From the IMG/VR virus record IMGVR_UViG_2671180821_000007: DNA of 11,368 nt, one strand, 5' to 3'. Under the pieces are notes generated by a model. It was not told where the DNA came from and did not search any database. It saw nothing but the letters and a program-made list of their open reading frames with translations. The stretch is from a virus. Taxonomy: Duplodnaviria > Heunggongvirae > Uroviricota > Caudoviricetes. A program made the position numbers and the translations under genes. Shown here in pieces: positions 1 to 11,368 of this stretch (position 1 is its first letter; every line of letters begins with the position of its first letter).

Positions 1-246
1 TCACTGGCGCTGACACTCCCTCCGTTGTTGAGAACGGCGACGGTATGCCAGCAACTCAAGAACTCTGGTTCGTATGTTGCGCATATCCACGCCGTTAAGC
101 TCAATACCGTCACGGCGCATTACCTCATCCACCACACGCGCATAATTTTCAGCGGTCACGCTGTCCGGTTGCATGGCCTGTTCGTCAACCTGCTGGCTGA
201 TTCCGGCGACGCGGCGGATTAATCCCAGTATTTCGGCTTCTGTCAT
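1..246 (-). CDS. hypothetical head-module protein, 3' end runs off the window start; possibly a head completion or head-tail connector protein by position only
   Basis: Minus-strand ORF starting ATG at 246 (MTEAEILGLIRRV...), no stop before position 1. Sits immediately downstream of the capsid gene, its terminator and repeat copy A. No family recognised from the sequence. Confidence 0.45.
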   Translation of the reverse strand: MTEAEILGLIRRVAGISQQVDEQAMQPDSVTAENYARVVDEVMRRDGIELNGVDMRNIRTRVLELLAYRRRSQQRRECQRQ

Positions 247-384
247 TGTGCCCCCATCGCGCTGGTTAAGAAAACAAGCTCAGATTTTTTGTAAAGAATC
301 TGTCACGCTAAAAGATGTCGAACAAAAATTAACCACAATCATCATCTTTTTTGCATCAACTACATTAAAAACAACAGGTTACAC

Positions 385-475
385 ACATGATGATGATGAC
401 GATAAAACCACAAAAATGCGCTTTTTTCCGCGCCGACCCGCCCCGTGGACAGGCCCCCCCCACCAGGAGGACCCG
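385..475. repeat. conserved intergenic element, copy A (GC-rich core about 423..473)
   Basis: Core TTTTTTCCGCGCCGACCCGCCCCGTGGACAGGCCCCCCCCACCAGGAGGACC matches 2938..2990 almost base for base. Flanking A/T-rich part (catgatgatgatgacgataaaacca) is also related to copy B (ggtggtgatggtgacataaaaatca). Confidence 0.7.
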
Positions 476-498
476 CAAAAAAGGCGGCTGCTGCCGCC
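476..498 (-). terminator. rho-independent terminator following the capsid gene
   Basis: On the minus strand: stem GGCGGC, loop AGCA, stem GCCGCC, then TTTTTTG (plus 476..482 is caaaaaa). Lies 7 nt after the capsid stop at 505. Confidence 0.7.
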
Positions 499-504
499 TT
501 GTTC

Positions 505-1269
505 TCATGAAGAAATCGCTCTGACCATTCCGCGATAATCCAGAGCAGCAACGCCAGCATCAATGCGGACCTTCCAGGCCACACCGTCAACAATAAAGCC
601 CTCCTGCTGCTCAAGGTAAGGCTCGTCATTACCGTCAAGATAAGCCACCTCAATTGTGTCCGTTCCCTGTGCTGAAAGCATGTACCATTGCTTATCACTG
701 ACTTCATCAAGGCGGGGATCGACAATAATATCCAGTTGTTTGTGGTACGGGTTATATGAACCACTGTTTGTATCGGCACCGAAAGGCGTGGTTGAGTTAA
801 CCATTTGCAACGCTCTGTCTTCCAGAGCCGCAGGAACAAGAAGGAATTTTGGCACAATATTCAGCACCTCACCGTTTTCATCCCTCTGTGTGCGCATTGC
901 ACGGCGTGCAATGCCAAGCCCTGTAGTGCTGACTCCGTTATCAATATCATTTCCGTGTTTTTTGCTGAACAGCGGTATACCGTCAGAAAGCTTTGTGTTT
1001 CCTGTCAGCACCAGATGAACCAGATTACCCACCGTTCTGGCGGCTGCTCGCCCCATTGCCTGTGGGATAACTGTTAACTGATTCAGGTCATCGTTAATAA
1101 TCGCCTGTCGGGTAATGCTGAAAATATTTCCGTAAGTTGCCAGCGCGATTGGTTCGCCACGGTCACTGGTGGTGATGTATTTATATTCCGCGCCTTCCGG
1201 CACTTTGTTTAATGTAGAGAAGCCATTCAGGCCAACACGACGTGCCTCATGGAAGTTTGACAATGAACC
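505..1269 (-). CDS. major capsid protein, C-terminal portion in the -1 frame relative to the upstream protease/scaffold ORF; no own ATG or convincing RBS
   Basis: 254-codon open frame (...SNFHEARRVGLNGFSTLNKVPEGAEYKY...AISS). The track start is a TTG at 1263; the frame is open from 1317. Placement directly after a ClpP-like prohead protease and scaffold-like region is typical of phage head modules. The fold assignment (probably HK97-like) is by context, not motif. Confidence 0.75.
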   Translation of the reverse strand, partial: GSLSNFHEARRVGLNGFSTLNKVPEGAEYKYITTSDRGEPIALATYGNIFSITRQAIINDDLNQLTVIPQAMGRAAARTVGNLVHLVLTGNTKLSDGIPLFSKKHGNDIDNGVSTTGLGIARRAMRTQRDENGEVLNIVPKFLLVPAALEDRALQMVNSTTPFGADTNSGSYNPYHKQLDIIVDPRLDEVSDKQWYMLSAQGTDTIEVAYLDGNDEPYLEQQEGFIVDGVAWKVRIDAGVAALDYRGMVRAISS

Positions 1270-9072: not shown

Positions 9073-9576
9073 TTATTGATAGTGTTTTATGTTCAGATAA
9101 TGCCCGATGACTTTGTCATGCAGCTCCACCGATTTTGAGAACGACAGCGACTTCCGTCCCAGCCGTGCCAGGTGCTGCCTCAAATTCAGGTTATGCCGCT
9201 CAATTCGCTGCGTATATCGCTTGCTGATTACGTGCAGCTTTCCCTTCAGGCGGGATTCATACAGCGGCCAGCCATCCGTCATCCATATCACCACGTCAAA
9301 GGGTGACAGCAGGCTCATAAGACGCCCCAGCGTCGCCATAGTGCGTTCACCGAATACGTGCGCAACAACCGTCTTCCGGAGACTGTCATACGCGTAAAAC
9401 AGCCAGCGCTGGCGCGATTTAGCCCCGACATAGCCCCACTGTTCGTCCATTTCCGCGCAGACGATGACGTCACTGCCCGGCTGTATGCGCGAGGTTACCG
9501 ACTGCGGCCTGAGTTTTTTAAGTGACGTAAAATCGTGTTGAGGCCAACGCCCATAATGCGTGCAGTTGCCCGGCAT
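9073..9576 (-). CDS. insB: IS1 InsB (transposase catalytic part, normally made as InsAB' by frameshift)
   Basis: Protein ...[90 protein letters not shown]... matches IS1 InsB. Confidence 0.95.
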
Positions 9577-9770
9577 CCAACGCCATTCATGGCCATATCA
9601 ATGATTTTCTGGTGCGTACCGGGTTGAGAAGCGGTGTAAGTGAACTGCAGTTGCCATGTTTTACGGCAGTGAGAGCAGAGATAGCGCTGATGTCCGGCAG
9701 TGCTTTTGCCGTTACGCACCACCCCGTCAGTAGCTGAACAGGAGGGACAGCTGATAGAAACAGAAGCCAC
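9495..9770 (-). CDS. insA: IS1 InsA (transposition repressor / N-terminal part of transposase)
   Basis: 91 aa [43 protein letters not shown]... matches IS1 InsA. Confidence 0.95.
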
Positions 9771-9825
9771 TGGAGCACCTCAAAAACACCATCATACACT
9801 AAATCAGTAAGTTGGCAGCATCACC

Positions 9826-9834
9826 AACCATGCT
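9826..9834. repeat. IS1 target-site duplication, right copy (AACCATGCT)
   Basis: Identical to 9049..9057. Confidence 0.9.
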
Positions 9835-10129
9835 AAAGGCTTTGTTCGCTAAGGTTCGTAGAAGCTCGTTAGTGTTTAAAATCGTGTCACGAGTTTTTAA
9901 GCGACGCAACAAAAAATGTCGCCATTTGGCATGACACCTGAATTACCTCATTAAAAACAAATAGATAAACCATCAGGTATTGGAATAATCAAGAAACAGA
10001 GAATAAGAACTCAGAAGAAGACATTTCAATTTTTTTCGATAGTTGACACATATAAATCGTCGATATTTGCCGATATTCGACGATTTATTTTAGAGGGCCA
10101 TTTTTCGCAAGAAAAACAGCCGTAATTTG

Positions 10130-11368
10130 TCAAGAATTTTGGGAGTAAATTCGCGGGGTCATAACAACGATTTTTTCATCATTGTTCTGGAGAAGCTCGA
10201 GACGCTCAACCCATAGATTAAGAGCGTCACGTTTTGCATCGAGATAACGGGAGTGATTATAGACTCGTTGCACTCCTGGCAACTGGTGCGCGGTTAGCTG
10301 CTCCACTACATGAGGATCCACGCCTAAATCGTTCAGCATCGTTGTAAACGTGTGCCGGATGTCGTGCAACGTCCAGGGGGCTTGATTAATGCGTCTGTGT
10401 GCCGTTCTTCCGTACTCTGATACGGATGATTGCCCTTTCAGTTCTCCGAGCAATAATCCCGTGTGCCTGTTCTGCTCCACCAGCTTCGTTACGAACGGCA
10501 AGATCGCTTCCGGTATTGGCCTGAATATTGCTACCTTCGTTTTGCTGTGTTCTTTCGGCACGGTCCAGAGCATTTCTTTAAAATCCCATTCCTGGACCTC
10601 AGAGCGTCTTAGCTCAGTGGCACGGCATCCGAAGACAATCAGGAGGCGAATCAGGGCGCTGTAGTACGGTGGGTAAATTTTTTCATCCAGGGCGCGGAGT
10701 AATTCCCCAAGCTCCTTGTTTGTTAGTACGCGCTCGCTTATTTCTGCTTTTTTTCCCACATCACCGACAACCATATCATCAAGAACGTTGCTGATTGCGT
10801 ATCGTCGTTTTCGGCAGTACTTAAGCGCCTGTTTGCATACCTGTAGCAAAAATCCGGCAGATACTGGGCTTCGCTTTGCCATCTGGTCAAAACATGCCAA
10901 CCAGTGCCGTAGCTCGCATTTTTCCAACGGCAAAGCGCCAATCTGGCTGATTATGTGTTTATTGATCCGGCTTTTCAGTGATTCGTAGTCAGTGCGCTTT
11001 TCCTTTGCATACGATTCAAGCCAGTAAGTGAGCGCTTCCTTAACTGTCACGGGGGCTAACGCATCCTGTACAGCACGATTAAGCTCATAGCGCGGATTTT
11101 TCCCCTCAGCCAGCCAGGCGCGACACTGTGCCGCTTTTTCCCTGGCTGCTTTCAGGCTCAGATCGGGATAGTTGCCCAGTCTCAGGCGTTCCGGTGATAC
11201 CTGCCTGCCAGTTCCGGCCCTGTAAGTGAAATACCAGGTTAACAGGCCGCTGGTGGAATGTCTTACGCTAAGATTGCCACCGTCATTAAAAAAGGCGTTT
11301 TTTGTGGTTGGTGATCCGCTTAATTTTCGTAAAAGAGTGTCGCTAAGTCTATGAATTGCGCTGCTCAT
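10130..11368 (-). CDS. int: P4-type tyrosine integrase (site-specific recombinase); start codon coincides with the window end
   Basis: 412 aa. N-terminal arm-binding pattern (LSDT..RKL...F.DGG.L.V...WYFTYR...LRLGNYPDLSLKAAREKA) and C-terminal catalytic motifs (HDIRHTFTT, VYNHSRY with candidate Tyr). An extension beyond 11368 cannot be excluded. Confidence 0.93.
   Translation of the reverse strand: MSSAIHRLSDTLLRKLSGSPTTKNAFFNDGGNLSVRHSTSGLLTWYFTYRAGTGRQVSPERLRLGNYPDLSLKAAREKAAQCRAWLAEGKNPRYELNRAVQDALAPVTVKEALTYWLESYAKEKRTDYESLKSRINKHIISQIGALPLEKCELRHWLACFDQMAKRSPVSAGFLLQVCKQALKYCRKRRYAISNVLDDMVVGDVGKKAEISERVLTNKELGELLRALDEKIYPPYYSALIRLLIVFGCRATELRRSEVQEWDFKEMLWTVPKEHSKTKVAIFRPIPEAILPFVTKLVEQNRHTGLLLGELKGQSSVSEYGRTAHRRINQAPWTLHDIRHTFTTMLNDLGVDPHVVEQLTAHQLPGVQRVYNHSRYLDAKRDALNLWVERLELLQNNDEKIVVMTPRIYSQNS

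Follow-up and report, generated by a model that had tools for sequence, protein, structure and literature searches.

The IMG/VR virus record IMGVR_UViG_2671180821_000007 (Caudoviricetes) raises the question of whether its 11,368 nucleotides, hereafter the window, represent a new kind of phage satellite. An earlier note, made from the sequence alone, had described a satellite-type island in which P4-type integration and replication genes stand beside protease and capsid genes of its own, and had suggested that this may be a distinct architecture resembling capsid-forming islands. Our analysis indicates with high confidence that the window represents the body of an EcCIIHE3034-type Gram-negative phage-inducible chromosomal island (PICI), inserted in the Shigella sonnei chromosome at the attB site between cspD/yljB and clpS, and that this copy is genetically dead. 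The island was already catalogued as a PICI in 2018 and its architecture is known; the copy is an ordinary one, because three insertion sequence (IS) elements and one frameshift have disabled it.

Identity and borders of the island

The window was matched at 100% identity in S. sonnei chromosomes, including that of Ss046 (CP000038.1, 922,493-933,860), and comprises almost the whole of an island lying between cspD/yljB and clpS. On the int side, the S. sonnei island is followed by yljB, cspD and macAB. Beyond window position 1, where the earlier note had placed a search for the far attachment site and for terminase, portal and connector genes, we found an IS21 element and a 0.54-kb island tail with attR, followed by clpS and clpA. 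Since host genes occupy both flanks, no terminase, portal or tail gene lies beyond position 1; the island stops shortly after it. Both att cores (ATGATAGTTAT, which reads ATAACTATCAT on the opposite strand) survive in S. sonnei, with attL at position 922,309 of CP000038.1 and attR ending at 936,578. Comparison with the empty site of E. coli K-12 confirmed these borders and placed the core ~100 bp upstream of clpS. The island is 14.3 kb long in S. sonnei, including its three IS elements, and ~10.2 kb in an intact E. coli O111:H8 relative with the same borders; a unit of ~10 kb with precise att repeats recurs across many strains.

The mapped att cores fall exactly on published coordinates, as Fillol-Salom et al. 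2018 (ISME J; PMC6092414) list in their Table S2 a PICI at SSON_0868 of Ss046, 922309-936578. It is the same element, although that paper omits the IS insertions, the frameshift and the content of the late zone. Table S1 of the paper places EcCIIHE3034 at cspD-clpS with the att core ATGATAGTTAT and gives EcCI18098 at the same site, which is used by PICIs and never by prophages (PMC6092414). The earlier note had itself named identity to a described element family as the result that would speak against a distinct architecture. Because the island is listed in Table S2 and its layout is that of a standard Gram-negative PICI, that suggestion does not hold.

All open reading frames (ORFs) of the window were scanned with Pfam, PHROG and NCBIfam (Table 1). 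The scans recovered the gene order read by the earlier note (head genes, ssb, iteron origin, primase, regulators, alpA, int), and no ORF matched terminase, portal, connector, tail or lysis families. The element thus carries integration, replication and capsid genes with no terminase, portal or tail, in agreement with the earlier view that it is a satellite rather than a prophage. Credible genes lie on the minus strand, with two exceptions. The arrangement agrees with that of Gram-negative PICIs (PMC6092414) in several features: the length of the island falls within ~8-15 kb, int at one end is followed by a co-oriented alpA, the origin lies immediately 3' of pri-rep, where that paper also places it, the att core at cspD-clpS is empty in K-12, and the island has an incomplete set of head and packaging genes and no tail or lysis genes. 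In SatelliteFinder, a PICI holds at least four of the five components int, alpA, pri-rep, capsid and terS and is free of tail, holin, portal and connector genes; by Pfam and PHROG components the window lacks only terS, which makes it Type B. The capsid gene is one of these five core components and is commoner in Proteobacteria (Moura de Sousa 2023). Gram-negative PICIs are organised in four zones, namely integration, regulatory/Bro, replication and late, with a capsid gene as the commonest late gene, and PICIs with CLP_protease genes have been described (Tommasini et al. 2023; PMC10111431).

The closest named system is EcCIIHE3034 (NC_017628.1, 920272-930825), which shares the attB and the gene order and is similar in Int (96.8%), AlpA (95.7%), SSB (90%) and the terminal ORF (79%). 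It differs in being intact and in having a lambda-type late zone (E-like capsid, D-like decoration, Nu1-like TerS), and it carries another pri-rep allele (49%) and a DUF4222 protein of 33% identity. Among P4-like, PICI and capsid-forming families, the element is classified as a PICI of the EcCIIHE3034 type. It occupies a chromosomal intergenic site and so does not count among the helper-embedded PICIs (HE-PICIs), which sit within a late gene of the helper prophage, whereas three sister elements with the same replication and late modules do (loci L002, L027 and L094). The HE-PICIs and CLP_protease PICIs of PMC10111431 share the four zones and a doubled arm motif at comparable distances from the att core. 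In the window's island the motif is 11-12 bp long, (A)TTAACTACACC twice, and is found on the two arms at ~88 and ~144 bp from the att core; it resembles the HE-PICI motif in geometry and probably represents arm-type integrase sites. The HE-PICI arm motif is TGTATTGC instead of TTAACTACACC, and its doubled form, TGTATTGC(N4)TGTATTGC, was absent from 19 loci (L001-L019). Beside the PICI attachment region of E. coli IHE3034, directly downstream of clpA, there is a CRISPR-Cas locus of type I-F that contains two arrays (L023 3764-13720). A PADLOC scan found no defence system, and a Pfam search of the small ORFs at E<=10 gave nothing usable.

Table 1. Features of the window, with coordinates as window positions unless a locus is named
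Feature	Position	Strand	Evidence or remark
Terminal PICI-specific ORF (phrog_1561)	1..246	-	PHROG match 1.2e-43; 81 aa here, 93-94 aa in relatives
cos-like site 1	285..487	.	similarity and position
ClpP-like protease/scaffold/major capsid gene, pseudogene here (NF045540)	505..2372	-	ORFs 1227-2372 and 505-1263
orf75, 75 aa, satellite-specific (phrog_4934)	2369..2596	-	stop overlaps capsid gene start
cos-like site 2	2889..3004	.	direct repeat of site 1
ssb, single-stranded DNA-binding protein	3032..3454	-	Pfam SSB 3.9e-16
81-aa ORF (phrog_1231), replication zone	3451..3696	-	PHROG
Iteron origin	3747..3971	.	10 x GGTGAACAGT, AT-rich
pri-rep, C-terminal fragment (Pox_D5)	4000..4280	-	Pfam
IS600-like IS3-family element, orfA/orfB	4281..5544	-	1264 bp, inside pri-rep
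pri-rep, N-terminal part (D5_N, DUF5906 SF3 helicase)	5545..7084	-	Pfam, PHROG, P4 alpha homology
DUF4222 protein	7066..7365	-	Pfam
106-aa ORF (phrog_15327)	7372..7692	-	PHROG
Icd-like host cell division inhibitor homologue	7685..7882	-	NCBIfam NF033153
Operator-like repeats, three copies of TGGTATTCAC/GTGAATACCA	7985..8039	.	divergent promoter region
YlcI/YnfO family gene	8083..8388	+	divergently transcribed
58-aa ORF	8446..8622	+	plus-strand gene
alpA (Phage_AlpA)	8734..8943	-	95.7% identity to EcCIIHE3034 AlpA
IS1	9058..9825	-	768 bp, int-alpA intergenic region
Tyrosine integrase, Arm-DNA-bind_3 domain	10130..11368	-	96.8% identity to EcCIIHE3034 Int
Doubled (A)TTAACTACACC motif	L001 11297-11322 and 21238-21263; L003 12859-12882; L017 9954-9977		near both island ends

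The capsid gene and its satellite clade

In the E. coli relatives, the capsid gene is one 629-aa ORF that combines protease, scaffold and capsid and scores 892 bits against NF045540 (cutoff 475). The window copy holds ClpP protease and Phage_capsid_4 domains. A 13-bp deletion near 1309 throws it out of frame, so that the gene falls into two ORFs, and a further 9 bp are deleted in frame near 516. The earlier note was right that the island has its own capsid module, but what it read as separate protease and capsid genes is one gene split by the 13-bp deletion. Programmed frameshifting was rejected as an explanation, because the relatives have a continuous ORF and the shift is this deletion. Between the window and the O111:H8 capsid gene, dN/dS was 0.126 and was similar before and after the frameshift. 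The low values on either side of the lesion therefore indicate purifying selection in the family and a recent lesion in S. sonnei. Divergence along the gene was mosaic (window 505-2372 against L001 12492-14381), with a dS of 0.14 in the protease/scaffold part and of 0.82 in the capsid domain at similar dN/dS, which suggests recombination inside the gene.

A tripartite capsid gene with protease, scaffold and capsid in one ORF is reportedly found in phages of the Gifsy-2 type. The island gene is collinear over its full length with the helper genes of the Gifsy-2/mEp460/cdtI type and keeps their GxAASM serine motif and IH(A/K)P histidine motif. Among phages, the fusion protein was best matched by long-tailed lambdoid ones, namely Stx2 phages, VT1-Sakai, CP-1639, mEp460 and cdtI, at 51-52% identity over the full length. 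The island copy differs further in lacking the 34-residue linker between protease and scaffold of mEp460 gp05 (29-34 residues relative to the helper genes) and in belonging to a clade found only in satellites. In a context scan that used one genome per species, every protein with 57-62% identity to that of the satellite (Kluyvera, Yersinia, Buttiauxella, Moellerella, Rahnella) was encoded in a satellite context, whereas every one of <=53% identity was in a prophage context, in the order terS-terL-portal-fusion-decoration-tail. All satellite copies were at most ~56% identical to the phage versions.

In six further loci from five genera, the satellite-clade capsid gene is immediately preceded by an orf75 homologue. 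No homologue of orf75 was found in 50,697 phage records, in which the terminal ORF had a single weak, partial match. Neither these two ORFs nor the 81-aa ORF showed similarity to helper TerS, gpW-like protein, TerL or the small ORFs of EcCIIHE3034. When orf75 and the terminal ORF were modelled from single sequences with AlphaFold2 (pLDDT 62.8 and 69.9, respectively), the models were not certain enough for fold searches, and a reading of orf75 as a ribbon-helix-helix protein was left without support. The terminal ORF was also considered as a candidate Rpp and rejected, since it resembles no PDB chain, including the RppC entry, and Rpp proteins have 144-153 aa.

Using IS-free segments in megablast, we found the fusion-ssb block in 141 of 5426 complete E. 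coli genomes (~2.6%), with the flanking content checked in a handful of these loci. Related satellites occupy several kinds of site. In Kluyvera (L027 3224-16149) and Rahnella (L094 2645-15203), a satellite sits inside the fusion gene of its helper, which it splits at residue ~103-114, and carries an intact fusion gene of its own that is ~45-51% identical to the interrupted one. In E. coli 2015C-3107 (L002 14779-27311), a sister satellite lies in the terL of a lambdoid prophage; it shares the replication and late modules of the window's island, and its integrase is unrelated (23% identical to the window Int). The ClpP-capsid gene of that prophage is likewise interrupted, by IS600. In E. coli YJ4, at the same cspD-clpS site, an extra DUF1441 terS stands between cos and the terminal ORF (L019 8234-8719). 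The encoded TerS is 65% identical to that of mEp460, and the YJ4 fusion allele is 64% identical at the protein level.

cos-like sites and the proposed life cycle of intact relatives

In lambda, cosQ, cosN and cosB lie in the region upstream of terS. Window positions 285-482 showed 85-88% DNA identity to the segment that, in long-tailed Stx phages and VT1-Sakai, lies 41-237 bp upstream of terS, and cos-like site 1 was 88% identical to the cos region at the same distance upstream of a DUF1441 terS in a lambdoid prophage of E. coli. Only the cosN-proximal part of site 1 was matched by mEp460 and CP-1639, at 82-84%. The coding-strand core ACGGGGCGGGCGGCGCGG resembles what we take to be lambda cosN. 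Site 2 is 83% identical to site 1 over 100 bp and corresponds to the cosQ/cosN side only; a helper-like cosB side extends from site 1 and is missing from site 2. Taken together, the cos-like sites were 81-88% identical to the cos region of lambdoid helpers. The phages that match site 1 at 85-88% have a capsid protein only ~52% identical to that of the island. The two direct repeats (388-487 and 2905-3004, 83%) bracket the orf75-capsid module, and the putative cosN of the second has a 2-nt insertion relative to the helper prophage.

The position of the cos-like segment beside ssb is conserved in EcCIIHE3034. There, a mEp460/Stx-type cos-like segment beside ssb (L024 12515-12690) is combined with lambda-type late genes, and EcCIIHE3034 may thus carry signals for two helper types. 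EcCICFT073 resembles the window in its int-alpA-pri-rep/ori layout, its capsid homologue, its two cos sites, which were demonstrated to be functional (PMC6092414), and its lambdoid cos helpers; its late zone includes the capsid and a decoration homologue. Because the cos-like sites of the window resemble helper cos regions and are repeated, as in EcCICFT073, the island in all likelihood relies on the helper's terminase, which would act at helper-like cos sites. EcCICFT073 differs in using Rpp (144 aa) to retarget the helper TerS to a divergent cosB (PMC6739421). We found no Rpp homologue and no winged helix-turn-helix gene of that size in the island, and its site 1, unlike EcCICFT073, keeps helper-like sequence on the cosB side.

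From the PICI literature, the life cycle of intact relatives would begin when a lambdoid helper phage switches on alpA. Int and AlpA would then excise the island, and the D5/P4-type pri-rep helicase would replicate it with SSB from the iteron origin. The helper terminase (DUF1441-type TerS, gpA-type TerL) would cut the island cos sites and package the concatemer into heads fitted with helper portal and tails. The capsid gene product would most likely assemble with the helper capsid protein or replace it. A comparable case is SaPIbov5, a cos-type satellite whose Ccm is a homologue of the helper capsid protein (PMC8569155); Ccm is a capsid-protein homologue only; it redirects capsid size and was shown experimentally to alter capsid shape.

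What the gene contributes in functional relatives is a separate matter. The single-ORF protease-scaffold-capsid gene of enterobacterial PICIs and HE-PICIs forms a long-diverged clade of its own. It is conceivable, though in our judgement rather unlikely, that this one gene would let an otherwise classical PICI build its own, possibly smaller, shell on the portal, terminase and tails of the helper. Several points weigh against the life cycle outlined above. EcCIIHE3034 itself transferred poorly, with <=40 transductants (PMC6092414, Table 1). The cos sites were assigned from similarity and position only, and the cosN-like core of site 1 (~428-447) has a 1-nt insertion compared with the relatives and the helper prophage. 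The role of the capsid gene in a PICI could be to form an own shell, but could also be size redirection, interference or the backup of an interrupted helper gene. When the capsid homologue of EcCICFT073 was deleted, neither transfer nor interference was altered (PMC6092414).

The last result, with transfer unreduced by the deletion, also fits the alternative that the gene serves interference or backup, poisoning helper assembly or replacing an interrupted helper gene, rather than the satellite's own transfer. A backup role was proposed in PMC10111431, and the Kluyvera and Rahnella sisters, which sit inside a helper fusion gene and carry their own intact copy, are consistent with it. However, the gene is equally conserved at chromosomal sites with no interrupted helper gene, and the satellite clade is 46-50% divergent from the helper genes, which argues against simple substitution. 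We regard interference or backup as possible but less likely than not.

Replication module, rival families and decay of the S. sonnei copy

The identification of the element as a PICI was also weighed against other satellite families. A degraded capsid-forming PICI (cf-PICI) that has lost portal, connectors, HNH, TerS and TerL would share int, alpA, pri-rep and the protease/capsid with the cf-PICI core set (PMC10085698). The resemblance to capsid-forming islands is superficial, as portal, connectors, TerL, TerS and HNH are absent from the window and from the intact relatives with the same att borders. In those relatives there is nothing besides orf75, the fusion gene, cos and the last ORF, with a DUF1441 TerS added in one variant. 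The fusion-ssb block is moreover the same in the 141 E. coli genomes (flanks checked in a handful of loci), host genes bound the island, and the fused gene and the gene order differ from the proteobacterial series capsid-protease-portal-connectors-hnh-terS-terL. The element is not a cf-PICI, because portal, TerL, connectors and HNH are absent, and a degraded one is very improbable.

The replication module bears on a second alternative, a P4-like satellite variant that gained head genes. The iteron block begins 29 bp past the pri-rep stop, directly 3' of the gene. It contains its ten copies of GGTGAACAGT, with no more than one mismatch each, in both orientations; 0.64 matches would be expected by chance in the whole window, and the observed total was reached in none of 200 shuffles. 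The pri-rep product is 48-51% identical to P4 alpha over residues 290-776 only and has no match to the N-terminal third (residues 1-289), and its match to TIGR01613 ('primase, P4 family') falls below the family cutoff. AlpA is 45% identical to P4 Vis. The label P4-type given in the earlier note is thus apt for the helicase, or C-terminal half of alpha, and for Vis/AlpA; it fails for Int, which is 23% identical to P4 Int, and for sid, psu, delta, epsilon and cI, which are absent. A tblastn search of all P4 proteins matched alpha, vis and int only, and in the window and an intact relative it found no homologue of sid, psu, delta, epsilon, cI, gop, beta or cII. An Rfam scan detected no P4-type immunity RNA (C4, isrK), its sole match being a spurious miRNA on the iteron palindromes. 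The cos region resembles lambdoid phages and not P2, and PMC6092414 explicitly sets these elements apart from P4. Because sid, psu, delta and epsilon are absent, the element is not P4-like, and we give a P4-like origin very little credence.

The weakest alternative, to which we attach almost no probability, is a remnant of an ordinary lambdoid prophage with its late region deleted: the capsid gene and cos region are homologous to lambdoid phages, but int points inward and is followed by alpA, the genes are unidirectional with a P4/D5-type replication module, orf75 and the last ORF have no homologue and one weak partial match, respectively, among the phage records, many strains share the 10-kb unit with its precise att repeats, and helper versions of the capsid protein reach only 50-54% identity to the island's, even where the helper resides in the same genome.

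The 10-mer TGGTATTCAC/GTGAATACCA occurs three times in the divergent promoter region between the Icd-like and YlcI/YnfO genes. These repeats look like operators of a regulatory switch.

The PICI in the window has been inactivated by four lesions. The earlier note had proposed decay through two IS insertions. Both were confirmed as simple insertions flanked by target-site duplications, ACA at 4278-4280 and 5545-5547 for the IS600-like element and AACCATGCT at 9049-9057 and 9826-9834 for IS1, which lies 115 bp upstream of alpA. To these must be added the IS21-family element that abuts the left edge; window positions 1-15 are derived from it and replace the last 16 codons of the terminal ORF. As pri-rep is cut, the capsid gene frameshifted, the terminal ORF truncated and IS1 placed between int and alpA, autonomous replication and capsid function appear to have been lost in S. 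sonnei. int, alpA, ssb, the origin and both att cores are apparently intact, and excision of the S. sonnei copy might still be possible. The inactivation of this copy is in keeping with the high IS burden visible along this S. sonnei locus.

Collectively, these results indicate that Gram-negative PICIs normally include satellites with a capsid gene of their own and that such a satellite should not be taken for a new architecture, the window being a worked example. Satellite families are told apart by portal, TerL and connectors (cf-PICI) or by sid, psu and delta (P4-like). The remaining biological interest lies in the functional relatives, with their conserved satellite-clade capsid gene and orf75. 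If such a gene does let a PICI build its own shell, an own-shell PICI would stand as a minimal intermediate form that links classical PICIs to cf-PICIs, and the window copy would be a dead example of it.

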